From assembly GCA_022897995.1 (NCBI GenBank), contig GCA_022897995.1_4763.1: a stretch of DNA of 64,000 nucleotides; one strand, written 5' to 3'. The notes beneath the pieces are model-generated. The model was not told the DNA's origin. It was given only the letters and a program-made list of their open reading frames with translations, and made no database searches. Position numbers and translations under genes: made by a program. The stretch is from a phage. Of the stretch, positions 23,599 through 63,407 are shown piece by piece. Every line of letters begins with the position of its first letter. The stretch's first letter is position 1.

Positions 23599-24800
23599 AT
23601 GTATTTTCTGTCATGTGAGCGAGTGGGTGATAAGATCTACGAGCGTTATATTGATGATGCTGGACAAGAACAAGAGCGTTACGTTGAATATACGCCAACT
23701 TTATTTCATCATGCCGCGCCTGGTATGGTTACGAATTATAAAGATATCTATGGCAAGCCTTGCATTGCTAAAAAATTCCCATCTATGAACGAGGCCAACA
23801 AATGGCGTAAAAAGATGGGAGAAATGGGGCAAGAGGCGCTAGGGATGGATGATTTTATCATCTCCTATCTGTCTGATACGTATAAAGGCGAGATTCGATA
23901 TGACCGAAATAAAATCCGTGTAGCATGGGTTGATATCGAGGTCACTGCCCCAGAATTTCCTAAACCAGAAGAAGCGAAATATCCTATCGATGCAATTACG
24001 CATTATGATTCCGTACATGATCGTTTCTTTGTATTTGACTTGAAAGGAAAAAACGGTGAAATCTGGGAAGTAAGCAAGTCTATTCTTCGACCTGATATTG
24101 TAGAGCGTGTTGTTTATAACGTCTATGACACAGAAGATGAATTGCTGTTAGAATACATCCGATTCTTTGAGGAAAACCGACCCGTTGGTTTCACTGGCTG
24201 GAACACAGAAACATTCGATATTCCATATATCATTAAACGTATCAGTAATAAGTTCGGAAGTAGAACCGCTAACCGTCTAAGCCCGTGCGGTAAGATTAAA
24301 TCCCGAATCTCGCAGGATGATTTTGGCAACGAGCGTGAAGCATTTACGATCATGGGGATCGAAAGCCTTGATTATATTGACCTGTACAAGAAATTTAGCT
24401 TTACGACTCAACCAACATATGCATTAGATTATGTTGCTGAATATGAGACAGGAATCGGTAAGGTTGATTATGATGGTCCGTTAAAGAAATTGCGTGATGA
24501 CAACCATCAACTTTACATCGATTATAACATCGGCGACGTTGATCGTGTGCTGGCGATTGATAAAAAGCGTGGATTTATCGATCTTGTGTATAGTCTATGT
24601 TTCTATGCAAAGATTAAATTTAACCATGTTTATAACCCGATGAAAGTATGGGATGCTATTATCTTCGGATCTCTGAAAGCTGAGGGTAAAGTAGTACCGG
24701 AAAATAAGATACAGCCTAAGCAGACTTATCCGGGCGCATTCGTAAAAGAACCTGTGCCGAATGCTTACCGTTGGATGATGAGCTTTGACCTTACTTCCCT
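23599..24800 (+). CDS. 43: DNA polymerase gp43 (family B), exon 1
   Basis: N-terminal and 3'-5' exonuclease region co-linear with T4/RB69 gp43; ends ...SFDLTSL in motif A; ATG 23599 after AAGGAG. Confidence 0.85.
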
Positions 24801-25914
24801 AAACTGATATGGGGCTTTCACTGGTGACAGTGATCGAATAACCTGCTTAATTGCTGGGAAATCTCTAAGGAGACAATCAGCAGCAGTTGCATTTTGAGCT
24901 AACGTGTCTTATAATGTATATAGATATTGATATACATTGGAGGCGCGAGATGAAAGACATTTTAAGAAAGTACGAAATACATAACGAGGAAGCATTAAAC
25001 GACTACATTAAACTGGTGTCTAATCCGTATCAGGGTGAAGAATATTCCGAGGTGCATCATATATGCCCGAAGTCAATGTTCCCGGAATATCGGTTAGATA
25101 AATGGAATCTTGTTAGGCTTAAGTTTGAAGACCACGTCGAGGCACATCGGTTATTGTGCTTAATATTCAATAACGGTGAATGCAAGAGAGCATATGCTTT
25201 CATCTCTAGAGGATCTTATGACGATAAAGTGAAGGCGTTAACCAAAGATGCATTCGCTGGAGACAATAACCCAGCCAAGCGAGAGGAAGTTAGACTGAAA
25301 ATATCCGAAAACAAGACCGGAAAAGCCAGAACCGATATGAGCGGAAAGAAATATTTCGGGGCTGATGAGGACACTATACGAAAAGGTCTTGATTCTATGG
25401 CAGAAAAGCTAAAGAATACTGTTATCGTTAAGGATAAGGAAGGAAATCGGTTTAGAGTTAGTTGTGATGATCCTAGATATGTTTCCGGTGAGTTGGTATC
25501 ATTTAATACTGGCGAGAAACGCGAAAATTCAGCGTCTAAACGACCGGAAGTTATGAGTAAAATAATGTCAAAACGTAATGAAACTTATGCTAAATTTGCA
25601 AGTTTCACATTTGATGAAATGGTGAATTTTCTTGTTGAAGCACACAATTCAGGAAAAGAGATTTTTGGTAAGAAGAAACCTTTTGCTAAGAATTATAGCG
25701 GATACTGTAAGAGAACACCGTTTGATCAAAATGAGCTTAAAGATGCAGTTGTTCAACGACTATCGAAAGGGTAACGAACCGAGTAGAGTAGAATCAAGCG
25801 ATTCGAAATGGCAGGATTCTCTATGAGAATGTGATATAGTCTGATCTACATGGTGACATGTAGCAGTTCGCAAGAGAACGGGCGCGGGAGTAGCGAACCG
25901 CGCTGAACATAATG
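24801..25914 (+). mobile_element. group I intron with internal HNH endonuclease ORF
   Basis: Exon U 24800 / intron 3' G 25914; P 24849-24861, Q 24875-24884, R 25751-25762, S 25833-25841 core-like blocks; splicing restores DLTSLYPSIIRQ. Confidence 0.7.
24950..25774 (+). CDS. intron-encoded HNH homing endonuclease with NUMOD3-like repeats
   Basis: EVHHICPKS...N...EDHVEAH HNH core; GDNNPAKREEVRLKISE NUMOD3-like; GGAGG 24939-24943 then ATG 24950. Confidence 0.8.
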   Translation: MKDILRKYEIHNEEALNDYIKLVSNPYQGEEYSEVHHICPKSMFPEYRLDKWNLVRLKFEDHVEAHRLLCLIFNNGECKRAYAFISRGSYDDKVKALTKDAFAGDNNPAKREEVRLKISENKTGKARTDMSGKKYFGADEDTIRKGLDSMAEKLKNTVIVKDKEGNRFRVSCDDPRYVSGELVSFNTGEKRENSASKRPEVMSKIMSKRNETYAKFASFTFDEMVNFLVEAHNSGKEIFGKKKPFAKNYSGYCKRTPFDQNELKDAVVQRLSKG

Positions 25915-27391
25915 GTATCCATCAATCATCCGTCAGGTTAACATTTCGCCGGAAACAATCGCCGGATCTTTTGATGCTGCACCGATGCACGAGTATATCA
26001 ATAAAACTGCACCACGTCCGAGTGATGAGTATTCTTGCTCGCCTAACGGATGGATGTATCGAAAAGATATTCATGGTATCGTACCGATTGAGATTAAAAA
26101 GGTATTCGATCAGCGTAAGCAGTACAAAAACATGATGTTGGCGTGTGATCGCAATGCTGAACTCTGTAAAGCGATTCTACACGATGAAAATCATGTTTAC
26201 GGGGGAACCATTAGCTATAGCGTTGAAGTTCGTCACGACTTCGATGAAGCGTTTAAATCTATGCTTTCGGAATTAAGCAAAGATGCCTTAGAGAAATTGC
26301 TGGAAGAATGTAAAGACGAGTCGATCTTGTGCAATACAAACCAGCTTTCTCGAAAAGTTTTGATCAACTCCCTTTATGGTGCGTTGGGGAATCCTAAATT
26401 CCGTTTTTATGATCTCCGTAACGCTAGTGCGATCACCTTGTTTGGTCAGCTTGCAATTCAGTGGATTGAGCGTAAGATTAACGAATACTTAAACGAGCTT
26501 TGCGGAACAACCGATTTTGCATATGTTCGTTATTGTGATACTGACTCCGTTTATGTGCTGGTTAACAATGTTGTTGATAAGGTTGGCGGGGAAGACCGTT
26601 TCGACGATACCGAAAAACTTGTTGACTTCCTTGATAATTTCGGTAAACATCGAATGGAACCTATTATCGACAAGGGATATCGCGAGTTATGCGAGTACAT
26701 GAACAACTATGAGCACTTGATGTTTATGGACCGCGAGGCAATTGCTGGTCCTCCGTTGAAATCTGCGGGTATCGGTGGATTCTGGACGGGTAAAAAACGC
26801 TATGCTCTTAATGTTTGGGATATGGAAGGAACGCGCTTTGCTGAGCCTAAGCTAAAAATCATGGGCTTGGAAACGCAACGTAGCTCCACCCCTAAAGCAT
26901 GTCAGAAATCACTGAAAGAATGTATTCGCCGTATGTTGCAGGAAGGTGAAGAGTCATTGCAGGAATATTACGGTATTTTTGAGCAAGAGTTTAGAAAACT
27001 TGACTATCTTGAGGTTGCTGCGGTATCATCTGCAAACAACCTACAGAAATACAGCGATTCAAACGGGTATCCGATTAAGGGTTGTCCGTATGCGGTTAAG
27101 AGTGTATTGTGCTATAATCGTAATGCTCGAAAATTCGGACTAGATCCGATTCGTGAGGGCGAGAAGGTTATGATTGTACCGCTTAAAGACCGAAATCCGT
27201 TTGGAGAAATCTGTTTTGGTTGGTTGTCCGGTACTCGTATTCCGCCAGAAATTGAATCAGAGGTGTTAAAGTGGTTGGACTGGCCTTTGTTGTTTAATAA
27301 GACTTTCGTCAAACCACTGGAGAACATTACCACGGCTGCAAAGCTGCAATATGAAAAGGTGGCATCGCTTACGGACCTGTTTGACATTTAA
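25915..27391 (+). CDS. 43: DNA polymerase gp43, exon 2 (palm/fingers/thumb)
   Basis: YPSIIRQVNISPET..., KILINSLYGALGN, YCDTDSVYV (motif C) in frame from 25916. Confidence 0.85.
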
Positions 27392-58286: not shown

Positions 58287-58294
58287 TATTTATA
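58287..58294 (-). promoter_or_regulatory. T4-type late promoter (TATAAATA) for gene 36
   Basis: TATAAATA on - strand 33 nt upstream of gp36 ATG; GAGG ribosome-binding site. Confidence 0.65.
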
Positions 58295-63399: not shown

Positions 63400-63407
63400 T
63401 ATTTATA
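63400..63407 (-). promoter_or_regulatory. T4-type late promoter (TATAAATA) for gene 34
   Basis: TATAAATA on - strand 29 nt upstream of gp34 ATG, AAGGAG ribosome-binding site. Confidence 0.65.

Follow-up and report, generated by a model that had tools for sequence, protein, structure and literature searches.

The interrupted gene 43 and its intervening sequence

The DNA considered here is a 64,000-nucleotide stretch of phage contig GCA_022897995.1_4763.1, called the window throughout, which carries a replication-gene block of a T4-type phage (gp45, gp44/62, RegA, gene 43, UvsX, and gp41) and has Krischvirus vB_EcoM_G2494 as its closest megablast match, at 98.6%. Gene 43, encoding the family B DNA polymerase, is interrupted in this window by an intervening sequence that itself contains an endonuclease open reading frame (ORF). 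On the sequence evidence, the interruption is very probably a mobile group I intron that carries a gene for a homing endonuclease of its own and resides in gene 43 of a Krischvirus, that is, an RB49-like T4-type coliphage.

Read without splicing, the first gene 43 ORF ends in ...MMSFDLTSLN at a TGA stop (24805-24807), and exon 1 proper ends in ...FDLTSL, its last two bases (CT) opening the final Leu codon. At the other end, 23 in-frame conserved codons (YPSIIRQVNISPETIAGSFDAAP) precede the first ATG of exon 2 (25985) and reach back to 25916. RB49 and about 50 other Krischvirus records lack precisely positions 24801-25914, and their alignment with the window fixes the bounds of the intervening sequence. 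Joining 24800 to 25915 in silico produces a 2679-nt ORF of 892 amino acids that aligns with RB49 gp43 without a gap at 99.9% identity, with DLTSLYPS at residues 397-404. The insertion point follows the second base of the Leu codon and falls between the L and the Y of catalytic motif A (DLTSL^YPS, the caret marking the position of the intron here and below). The original prediction, made from the letters and their translations, had placed the ORF within an intervening sequence and the homing site in motif A of a family B polymerase, and both statements agree with these exon ends.

Public records of the locus give two "DNA polymerase" coding sequences (CDSs) together with a "hypothetical protein", an "HNH endonuclease", or a "NUMOD3 motif family protein", and annotate no intron. 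Taken literally, they would describe a polymerase gene that is never spliced and is truly split into 43A and 43B, with a free-standing HNH gene between the cistrons, and split versions of gene 43 do exist in relatives such as Aeromonas phages 44RR and 25. We regard this as highly improbable, because the split would cut through catalytic motif A and would leave the 23 conserved codons untranslated upstream of the first ATG of "43B", and because a full ribozyme core with covariation, P1, P10, a U.G pair, and a terminal G are found exactly at the boundaries. If the intervening sequence is an intron, what is annotated as two polymerase CDSs would really be one spliced gene plus a mobile element.

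A group I ribozyme of the IA type

Judged from its sequence and predicted structure, the intervening sequence is a group I intron of the IA type, IA2-like as are the introns of T4; the assignment to this type is made because P7.1 and P7.2 are both present (Table 1). A hand-built model of P1 through P10, comprising 84 pairs, was tested on a MAFFT alignment of ORF-less intron cores from 11 lineages, the ten beyond the window having been collected by way of relatives of the endonuclease. In this alignment, 87.2% of the model pairs were paired, compared with 72.0% in shuffled controls and 38-44% in slid controls. Double changes, affecting both sides of a pair, occurred in 54 pairs, and the observed measures were reached by 0 of 500 shuffles. 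P3, P7.1, P7.2, and P9 were essentially perfect with many pair types, and the losses of pairing in P2, P6a, and P9.2 were located mainly at indels misplaced by MAFFT. P3 was 100% paired with double changes in all 6 of its pairs, and the extra helices of subgroup IA behaved similarly, all 3 pairs of P7.1 and 4 of the 5 pairs of P7.2 being double-changed. These helices belong to a conserved core from P3 to P9 with a covariation-backed P3/P7 pseudoknot, and the R and S consensus sequences were both found in the intron.

The two ends of the intron fit the same model. The 5' splice site carries a U24800.G24811 pair, the intron ends in the terminal G25914, and the guide GAUAU-GGGG is able to pair with both exons, with exon 2 in P10 and with exon 1 in P1. 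With the Rfam model RF00028 (Intron_gpI), the window intron scored 33.9 bits (E 1.7e-6); the copy from phage JSE, in which most of the endonuclease ORF is deleted, scored 42.9 bits (E 1.9e-9). A short motif, UAACG(A)AC / AGCGAAC, is repeated at 25773-25779, inside P7.1, and at 25893-25898, in the P9.2 loop; the (U)AACG of the P9.2 loop is kept in nearly all lineages and may take part in a tertiary contact.

An HNH endonuclease gene that runs into the ribozyme core

The endonuclease gene is free-standing within loop L6a of the intron. It had been described as a 275-aa ORF at 24950-25774; the coordinates hold, and the length is corrected to 274 amino acids plus the stop codon. The ORF is not a chance reading frame, as it matches PHROG 12434 ("HNH endonuclease") from end to end with E 1e-130 and has 43 database relatives. 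Between lineages dN is 0.23-0.57, and dN/dS is at most 0.08 where computable, a value to be read as an upper bound only because dS between lineages is saturated.

At its 3' end the gene extends into the ribozyme core, a known arrangement for ORFs of this kind (PMC3984707). The shared segment is made up of the P6a 3' strand (25734-46), the P6 3' strand (25747-52), the R element with J6-7 and the P7 5' strand (25751-63), and the start of P7.1. The R sequence itself, GUUCAACGACUAU at 25751-25763, lies within the last 8 codons, so that the overlap of ORF and R element noticed earlier is real. Within the core alignment, whose columns average 51% identity, TTCAACGACTA is unchanged in all 11 lineages. 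Codon 272 (25763-25765) is either Ser (UCG) or Glu (GAG), in 7 versus 4 lineages, and without exception the switch is accompanied by a compensating GA/UC change 20 nt downstream, at the non-coding positions 25786-25787 of the P7.1 3' strand. The amino acid at this codon appears to be set by RNA pairing and not by protein function.

The string EVHHICPKS...EDHVEAH, previously read as an HNH core, was confirmed in the predicted protein. Among 26 relatives, E34, H36, H37, P40, H62, and H66 are invariant and N53 is nearly so. In an AlphaFold (AF2) model with a pLDDT of 87, strands 33-37 and 54-58 and helix 59-73 carry the HNH residues, which places the conserved His/Asn/His on a predicted strand-strand-helix (beta-beta-alpha) scaffold, as in HNH nucleases. 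Comparison with the BFVD viral models by Foldseek gave 63 matches at E <= 1e-3, all of them phage homing endonucleases, with T4 MobC (P07074, 6e-5), T4 MobB (P13329, 7e-5), and many "Mob-like" entries among the neighbors, several others being named "Nuclease associated modular domain" proteins. Residues 12-84 also match annotated mobC in tblastn (E 1e-9, 41% identity), and phrog_655 matches the endonuclease with E 3e-19. Sequence and model together support classing the product as a Mob-like phage homing endonuclease of the HNH/NUMOD class.

The original prediction also included a NUMOD3-like DNA-binding repeat. A motif of this description is present at residues 104-125, with weak backing from Pfam: NUMOD3 (PF07460) scores 11.6 bits with E 0.27, under its 20.4-bit gathering cut-off, and matches 3 of the 26 relatives (best E 2e-4). 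A second, degenerate copy follows downstream and has no Pfam match of its own. The resemblance to NUMOD3 is real, and membership of that family is putative.

Table 1. Positions of the intron, its predicted ribozyme helices, the endonuclease gene, and associated features in the window
Feature	Position	Strand	Remarks
Gene 43 (family B DNA polymerase) exon 1	23599..24800	+	colinear with RB49 gp43
Group I intron, IA-type with P7.1/P7.2, 1114 nt	24801..25914	+	absent from RB49; Rfam RF00028; covariation
Gene 43 exon 2	25915..27391	+	start G^TAT CCA = (L)YPSIIRQVNISPE
P1	exon CCCU 24797-24800 / internal guide GGGG 24811-24814	+	unchanged in 11/11 sequences
P10	GAUAU 24806-24810 / exon 2 GUAUC 25915-25919	+	2 pairs with compensatory change
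Ribozyme 5' half	24819..24900	+	P2 24819-32, P3 5' strand 24842-47, P5 24862-73
P4, P6 and P6a	P4 24852-57/24877-82; P6 5' strand 24883-88; P6a 5' strand 24889-24900	+	
P7	25758-62 / 25837-41	+	encloses P7.1, P7.2, P3 3' strand, P8 (25758..25841)
P7.1 and P7.2	P7.1 25763, 64, 66 / 25784, 86, 87; P7.2 25791-95 / 25800-04	+	
P3 3' strand and P8	P3 3' strand 25810-15; P8 25816-30	+	
P9 region	25846..25914	+	P9 25846-63; P9.1 25866-79; P9.2 25882-25903; terminal G 25914
Homing-site-like 21-mer TTTGAGCTAACGTGTCTTATA, possible operator	24893..24913	+	P6a 5' strand to first promoter-box bases
Predicted hairpin over the ribosome-binding site	24903..24947	+	18 bp, 8-nt loop; GGAGG in 3' arm
TATAATGT, degenerate counterpart of TATAAATA late-promoter box	24910..24917	+	exact box at this place in six relatives
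Shine-Dalgarno GGAGG	24939..24943	+	6 nt upstream of ATG
Homing endonuclease gene (predicted)	24950..25774	+	ATG 24950, TAA 25772-25774; 825 nt, 274 aa + stop
HNH core, aa 34-66	25049..25147	+	EVHHICPKS...EDHVEAH
NUMOD3-like motif 1, aa 104-125	25259..25324	+	GDNNPAKREEVRLKISENKTGK; weak
NUMOD3-like motif 2, aa 192-213, degenerate	25523..25588	+	shares 7 of 20 residues with motif 1
650-nt segment missing from phage JSE	25039..25688	+	between AAGAAT direct repeats; frameshifted relic remains
ORF/ribozyme-core overlap	25734..25774	+	last 41 nt, last 14 codons

Distribution of the intron and signs of movement

Among roughly 64 Krischvirus records, the intron is present in about 12, survives as a relic in one phage (JSE), and is missing from about 50, RB49 among them, in which the site is empty. 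In megablast the whole query was covered by 12 records that represent eleven phages, ECD7 being listed twice; two JSE records covered 84% of the query, and RB49 and many others covered 72%, the missing 28% corresponding to the intervening sequence. Close relatives are thus polymorphic for the presence of the intron at its own target site, the distribution by which homing endonucleases are recognized.

Among carriers, which have different exon backgrounds, the intron diverges by 0.36-0.99% and the exons by 1.9-2.5%, a 2.5- to 5-fold lower divergence for the intron than for the sequence around it. The junction reads GAC CTT ACT TCC CT^G in 4 of 4 carriers and GAC TT(A/G) ACA AGT (C/T)T^G in all six intronless Krischvirus alleles sampled. 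This amounts to six synonymous differences, including a TCC/AGT serine switch, within the 11 nt 5' of the insertion in genes that are otherwise ~98% identical. The six-change tract is perfectly associated with the presence of the intron, and the carrier-type junction was found in no intronless record. An apparent amino-acid change in the RB49 target (DLNSL) was rejected as a MAFFT gap artefact; on direct inspection, RB49 has DLTSL with the six synonymous changes. P1 needs UCCCU: pairing of its CCCU with GGGG is seen in every one of the 11 lineages, and the AGUCU of intronless alleles would pair poorly. We infer from these sequences that the tract is the co-converted footprint of a foreign donor and that it has been kept because splicing needs it. 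It is the patchy presence of the intron, the relic in JSE, the low intron divergence, and this foreign exon tract that lead us to read the distribution as that of a homing element.

Relatives of the endonuclease extend well beyond Krischvirus. The close ones came from Logan, ENA, and NCBI assemblies, and a protein-profile search of IMG/VR returned ECD7 and only distant Mob-like proteins. In all 13 contexts of relatives at 33-65% identity, of which the ten at 36-65% come from metagenomes or NCBI, the gene sits between DNA_pol_B_exo1 and DNA_pol_B fragments. Exon 1 ends in D-x-x-S/A-L and exon 2 starts with Y-P in 12 of these contexts; the contig of the thirteenth (L211) stops before exon 2, leaving only its exon 1 end to be seen. 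The relatives at 33-35% identity belong to the Ackermannviridae and occupy the same codon in Dickeya phages of the Limestone type, in Salmonella Kuttervirus, and in Acinetobacter phage nACB2. One endonuclease lineage at one polymerase site therefore spans the Straboviridae and the Ackermannviridae, and because the same lineage is found at the same codon in both families it lends itself to work on how a homing element persists over the long term. It would also suit the study of how enzyme, ribozyme, and target co-evolve.

The endonuclease family has been conserved in two phage families at a single site, with purifying selection acting on it, which could also mean that its main selected role is interference with co-infecting relatives, through damage to their polymerase gene or marker exclusion, with intron spread being secondary. 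The target is an essential replication gene, and the PhiPA3 intron endonuclease (PMC11620839) and Goodrich-Blair and Shub 1996 provide precedents. Nothing specific to this locus points to such a role, ordinary homing explains the same data, and the two roles are not exclusive; we find it improbable that interference is the main one and retain ordinary homing as the explanation.

A generic R...S pattern was rejected as a collector of relatives. The pattern is common to many phage group I introns and occurs in at least 120 IMG/VR contigs, and of 125 matches only one was close to a PolB motif, at a different site. In the contig concerned (L097, 5947-6200), a different family B polymerase gene has its DLSSLYPSII intact, and the intron-like R...S match ~135 nt upstream of this motif suggests another insertion site within the gene family.

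Expression of the endonuclease and the proposed homing cycle

In the homing cycle that we propose, the 1114-nt intron would fold as an IA-type ribozyme and, as its predicted structure implies, join ...UCCCU to GUAUCC..., which would restore the motif A codons D-L-T-S-L-Y-P-S and the normal 892-aa gp43. The intron-encoded protein is predicted to have an HNH nuclease of the Mob/I-TevIII kind at its N-terminus, a pair of NUMOD3-like motifs as linker, and a helical domain for DNA binding at its C-terminus. In a mixed infection, by analogy with I-TevIII, I-HmuI, and MobE, the enzyme would bind an intronless gene 43 where its motif A is encoded without interruption and would nick or cut close to the point of insertion. 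Repair by recombination with the genome that has the intron would then copy in the intron together with a short stretch of flanking exon. In the read-through polymerase pre-mRNA, the ribosome-binding site (RBS) is predicted to be locked in a hairpin, which would restrain expression in the manner of the T4 introns. In most relatives, the late promoter TATAAATA in the 5' arm of the hairpin would give rise to late transcripts in which the RBS is free; in this phage, with the degenerate box TATAATGT, the enzyme may be poorly expressed.

The hairpin and the promoter box can be followed across the lineages. The ORF has a GGAGG RBS of its own, as the original prediction stated, and it is predicted to be base-paired in the 18-bp hairpin of Table 1. 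RNAfold gives a minimum free energy of -20.8 kcal/mol (z -2.84) for the 92-nt region and -18.7 kcal/mol for a 68-nt segment, and the Shine-Dalgarno sequence is paired likewise in 8 of 11 lineages. Control by a late promoter and an RBS hairpin has its precedent in the T4 introns, where such hairpins are the normal state of active intron endonucleases (PMC2988022). Exact TATAAATA, the T4 late-promoter consensus, is present in the 5' arm of the hairpin in six relatives. In the 64-kb window it occurs twice on the minus strand (58287-58294 and 63400-63407), against a mean of 5.3 in shuffled sequence, and not at all in the intron. The sequence TTGCAT-N17-TATAAT at 24887-24915 was considered as a sigma-70 promoter and rejected; its -10 is perfect and only 3 of 6 positions agree in the -35, and the promoter scan did not list it. 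The -10 lies in the 5' arm of the hairpin, and a transcript starting from this site would lack that arm and leave the RBS free.

Overlapping the first bases of the promoter box is a 21-mer, TTTGAGCTAACGTGTCTTATA, that resembles the homing site, taken for this comparison as the last 17 positions of exon 1 (-17 to -1) followed by the first four of exon 2 (+1 to +4). Identity between the 21-mer and the homing site of the same lineage is 12 of 21 in the window, 14-16 of 21 in seven relatives, and 12 of 17 in L211. Rare variants at -17, -12, -11, and -10 co-occur by lineage in the two sequences, with a lineage-label permutation p of 0.046 across 9 lineages. The operator of I-TevI has 15/20 identity and overlaps its late promoter (PMC2988022). 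By analogy with I-TevI, the 21-mer might be a working operator through which the endonuclease represses its own promoter. In a linked proposal, the recoded intronless target might be an escape allele. Part of the 21-mer doubles as a strand of P6a and the sample is small; we offer the operator as a hypothesis only and hold the two proposals, taken jointly, to be unlikely. If the operator is genuine, the recognition sequence reads as the motif-A codons F-D-L-T-S-L-Y. The escape allele could consist of TTA ACA AGT in place of CTT ACT TCC, including the switch of serine codon family, in which case recognition would be weakened and an invading intron would be without P1 unless the donor exon tract were co-converted.

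Several observations weigh against reading the element as a mobile intron with a homing endonuclease of its own. The higher of the two Rfam scores, 42.9 bits, misses the 50-bit gathering threshold, the score being depressed by the 830-nt loop insertion, and a scan of the 64-kb window yielded no Rfam match at gathering level. No Pfam HNH family matches the protein at E <= 1 and no NCBIfam model matches it, HNH models match 0 of 26 family members, and searches of solved structures with the single protein and with a 26-sequence profile gave chance matches only (E >= 0.2). Because no such model matches, membership among the HNH enzymes rests on motif, fold, and relatives. The intronless Krischvirus target differs at 6 positions adjoining the insertion, which could affect cleavage. 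In this phage, moreover, the late-promoter box is non-consensus, the RBS is sequestered in the predicted hairpin, and no site qualified in a sigma-70 promoter scan for the ORF, and for these three reasons current expression is uncertain. The gene may be on its way to decay, as in JSE.

Such points would suit a history in which the intron is real and the Krischvirus endonuclease is silent or inactive, late in the homing cycle, with the intron persisting by vertical descent and ordinary recombination. The degenerate TATAATGT where six relatives have TATAAATA, the lack of a qualifying sigma-70 match, and the GGAGG buried in its 18-bp hairpin all agree with a silent gene, as does a pseudo-homing site that, at 12/21, is the most degenerate of the set. 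Outright decay has taken place in JSE, and T4 I-TevIII is a precedent for a defunct intron endonuclease. The ORF is nonetheless intact in 12 records, with 1-2 amino-acid changes against 3-10 nucleotide changes, the lower divergence of the intron relative to the exons fits recent spread, and the buried RBS is shared with the active T4 enzymes cited above. A silent or inactive endonuclease seems rather unlikely to us on this balance, and a mobile intron carrying its own homing endonuclease gene is the reading that we prefer.

Comparison with known introns and endonucleases

Petrov et al. (2010, Virol J 7:292) had already noted the gene 43 intron of JSE. The JSE and window copies are one and the same intron in one position, with more than 99% identity once the deletion is set aside, and they differ in the endonuclease gene, which is intact with 274 codons for amino acids in the window and is frameshifted and shorter by 650 nt in JSE. 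The second close counterpart is the putative I-LimII of phage Limestone, named from sequence only in the 2012 LIMEstone paper. Its protein is homologous over the full length at 33-35% identity, its intron core is homologous, and it occupies the same point (...DLNSL^YPHII...). It differs in coming from another phage family, the Ackermannviridae, and in being without the TATAAATA/hairpin layout. The table of the LIMEstone paper lists I-LimII as GIY-YIG, which its HH...N...H motif does not support. A second interruption lies ~160 codons downstream in the same gene of Dickeya and Salmonella Ackermannviridae (L223 3911-4753 and L224 3959-4801), and the endonuclease gene found there, on the opposite (minus) strand, is the I-LimIII of the LIMEstone paper.

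Among characterized systems, the nrdB intron of T4 and RB3, which encodes I-TevIII, is a group I intron of the T-even type; over 95 nt, its 3' core is 80-81% identical to that of the window, and the nrdB intron shares the control by late promoter and RBS hairpin. I-TevIII also resembles the window enzyme in layout, with the HH...N...H catalytic domain at the N-terminus and a distinct domain for DNA binding at the C-terminus. The host gene of I-TevIII is different (nrdB), and its DNA-binding domain has two zinc fingers, whereas the window enzyme has no Cys fingers and carries a helical domain along with NUMOD3-like motifs. I-TevIII acts as a dimer and makes a double-strand break. The closest characterized relatives of the N-terminal HNH domain in sequence and fold are the T4 Mob endonucleases (MobA-E), which differ in being free-standing instead of intron-borne and in having other targets.

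I-HmuI, I-BasI, I-TslI, and I-PfoP3I are likewise HNH enzymes encoded in group I introns that interrupt conserved parts of phage DNA polymerase genes, and several of them are nickases. Their host polymerases are of family A, in SPO1-, Bastille-, and T7-like phages; I-TslI was reportedly described by Bonocora and Shub in 2009. The insertion sites of this group differ from that of the window intron, and our searches detected no sequence similarity between these enzymes and that of the window. Intron 25.g43B of Aeromonas phage 25 also interrupts a T4-type gene 43; it belongs to group IA2, and its core is 70.5% identical to that of the window over 114 nt. It differs in lying within the 43B cistron and in having no internal endonuclease gene, and is thought to be mobilized by a neighboring free-standing GIY-YIG gene. 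We considered whether 25.g43B occupies the same insertion site as the window intron and rejected this, as it lies downstream of motif A.

In the literature searched, no characterization of the intact Krischvirus enzyme was found. The element is typical of the mobile group I introns that carry an HNH endonuclease in phages, a relic and a distant homologue of it have already been noted in print, and none of the findings overturns current understanding. What is new here is the buried RBS, the degenerate late-promoter box, the possible operator copy of the homing site, and the six-change synonymous tract. The locus offers an intact, predicted HNH homing endonuclease with its site at the steric-gate region of family B polymerases, at the L^Y of DxxSLYPS, and a natural series of intact, relic, and empty alleles in near-isogenic and easily crossed coliphages. 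The element could rewrite polymerase active-site codons synonymously. Krischvirus phages are used in therapy cocktails, for which an element able to move between co-infecting phages is relevant.

A further arrangement was seen in metagenomic T4-like phages (L005 2617-8831, and also L006, L008, and L210), in which the same intron and endonuclease occur in a polymerase gene that is also truly split. Exon 2 stops in these contigs after ~90 codons (...AEVIKSILARRKK followed by a stop). About 2.5-3 kb of small ORFs follow, one of them with a Macro domain, and then the 43B cistron (MELNYGIKF...). The full layout is seen in L005 and L008; L006 has a reverse-strand gene at the 43B position, and L210 ends before any 43B. 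The split lies roughly where the gene is split in Aeromonas phages 44RR and 25.

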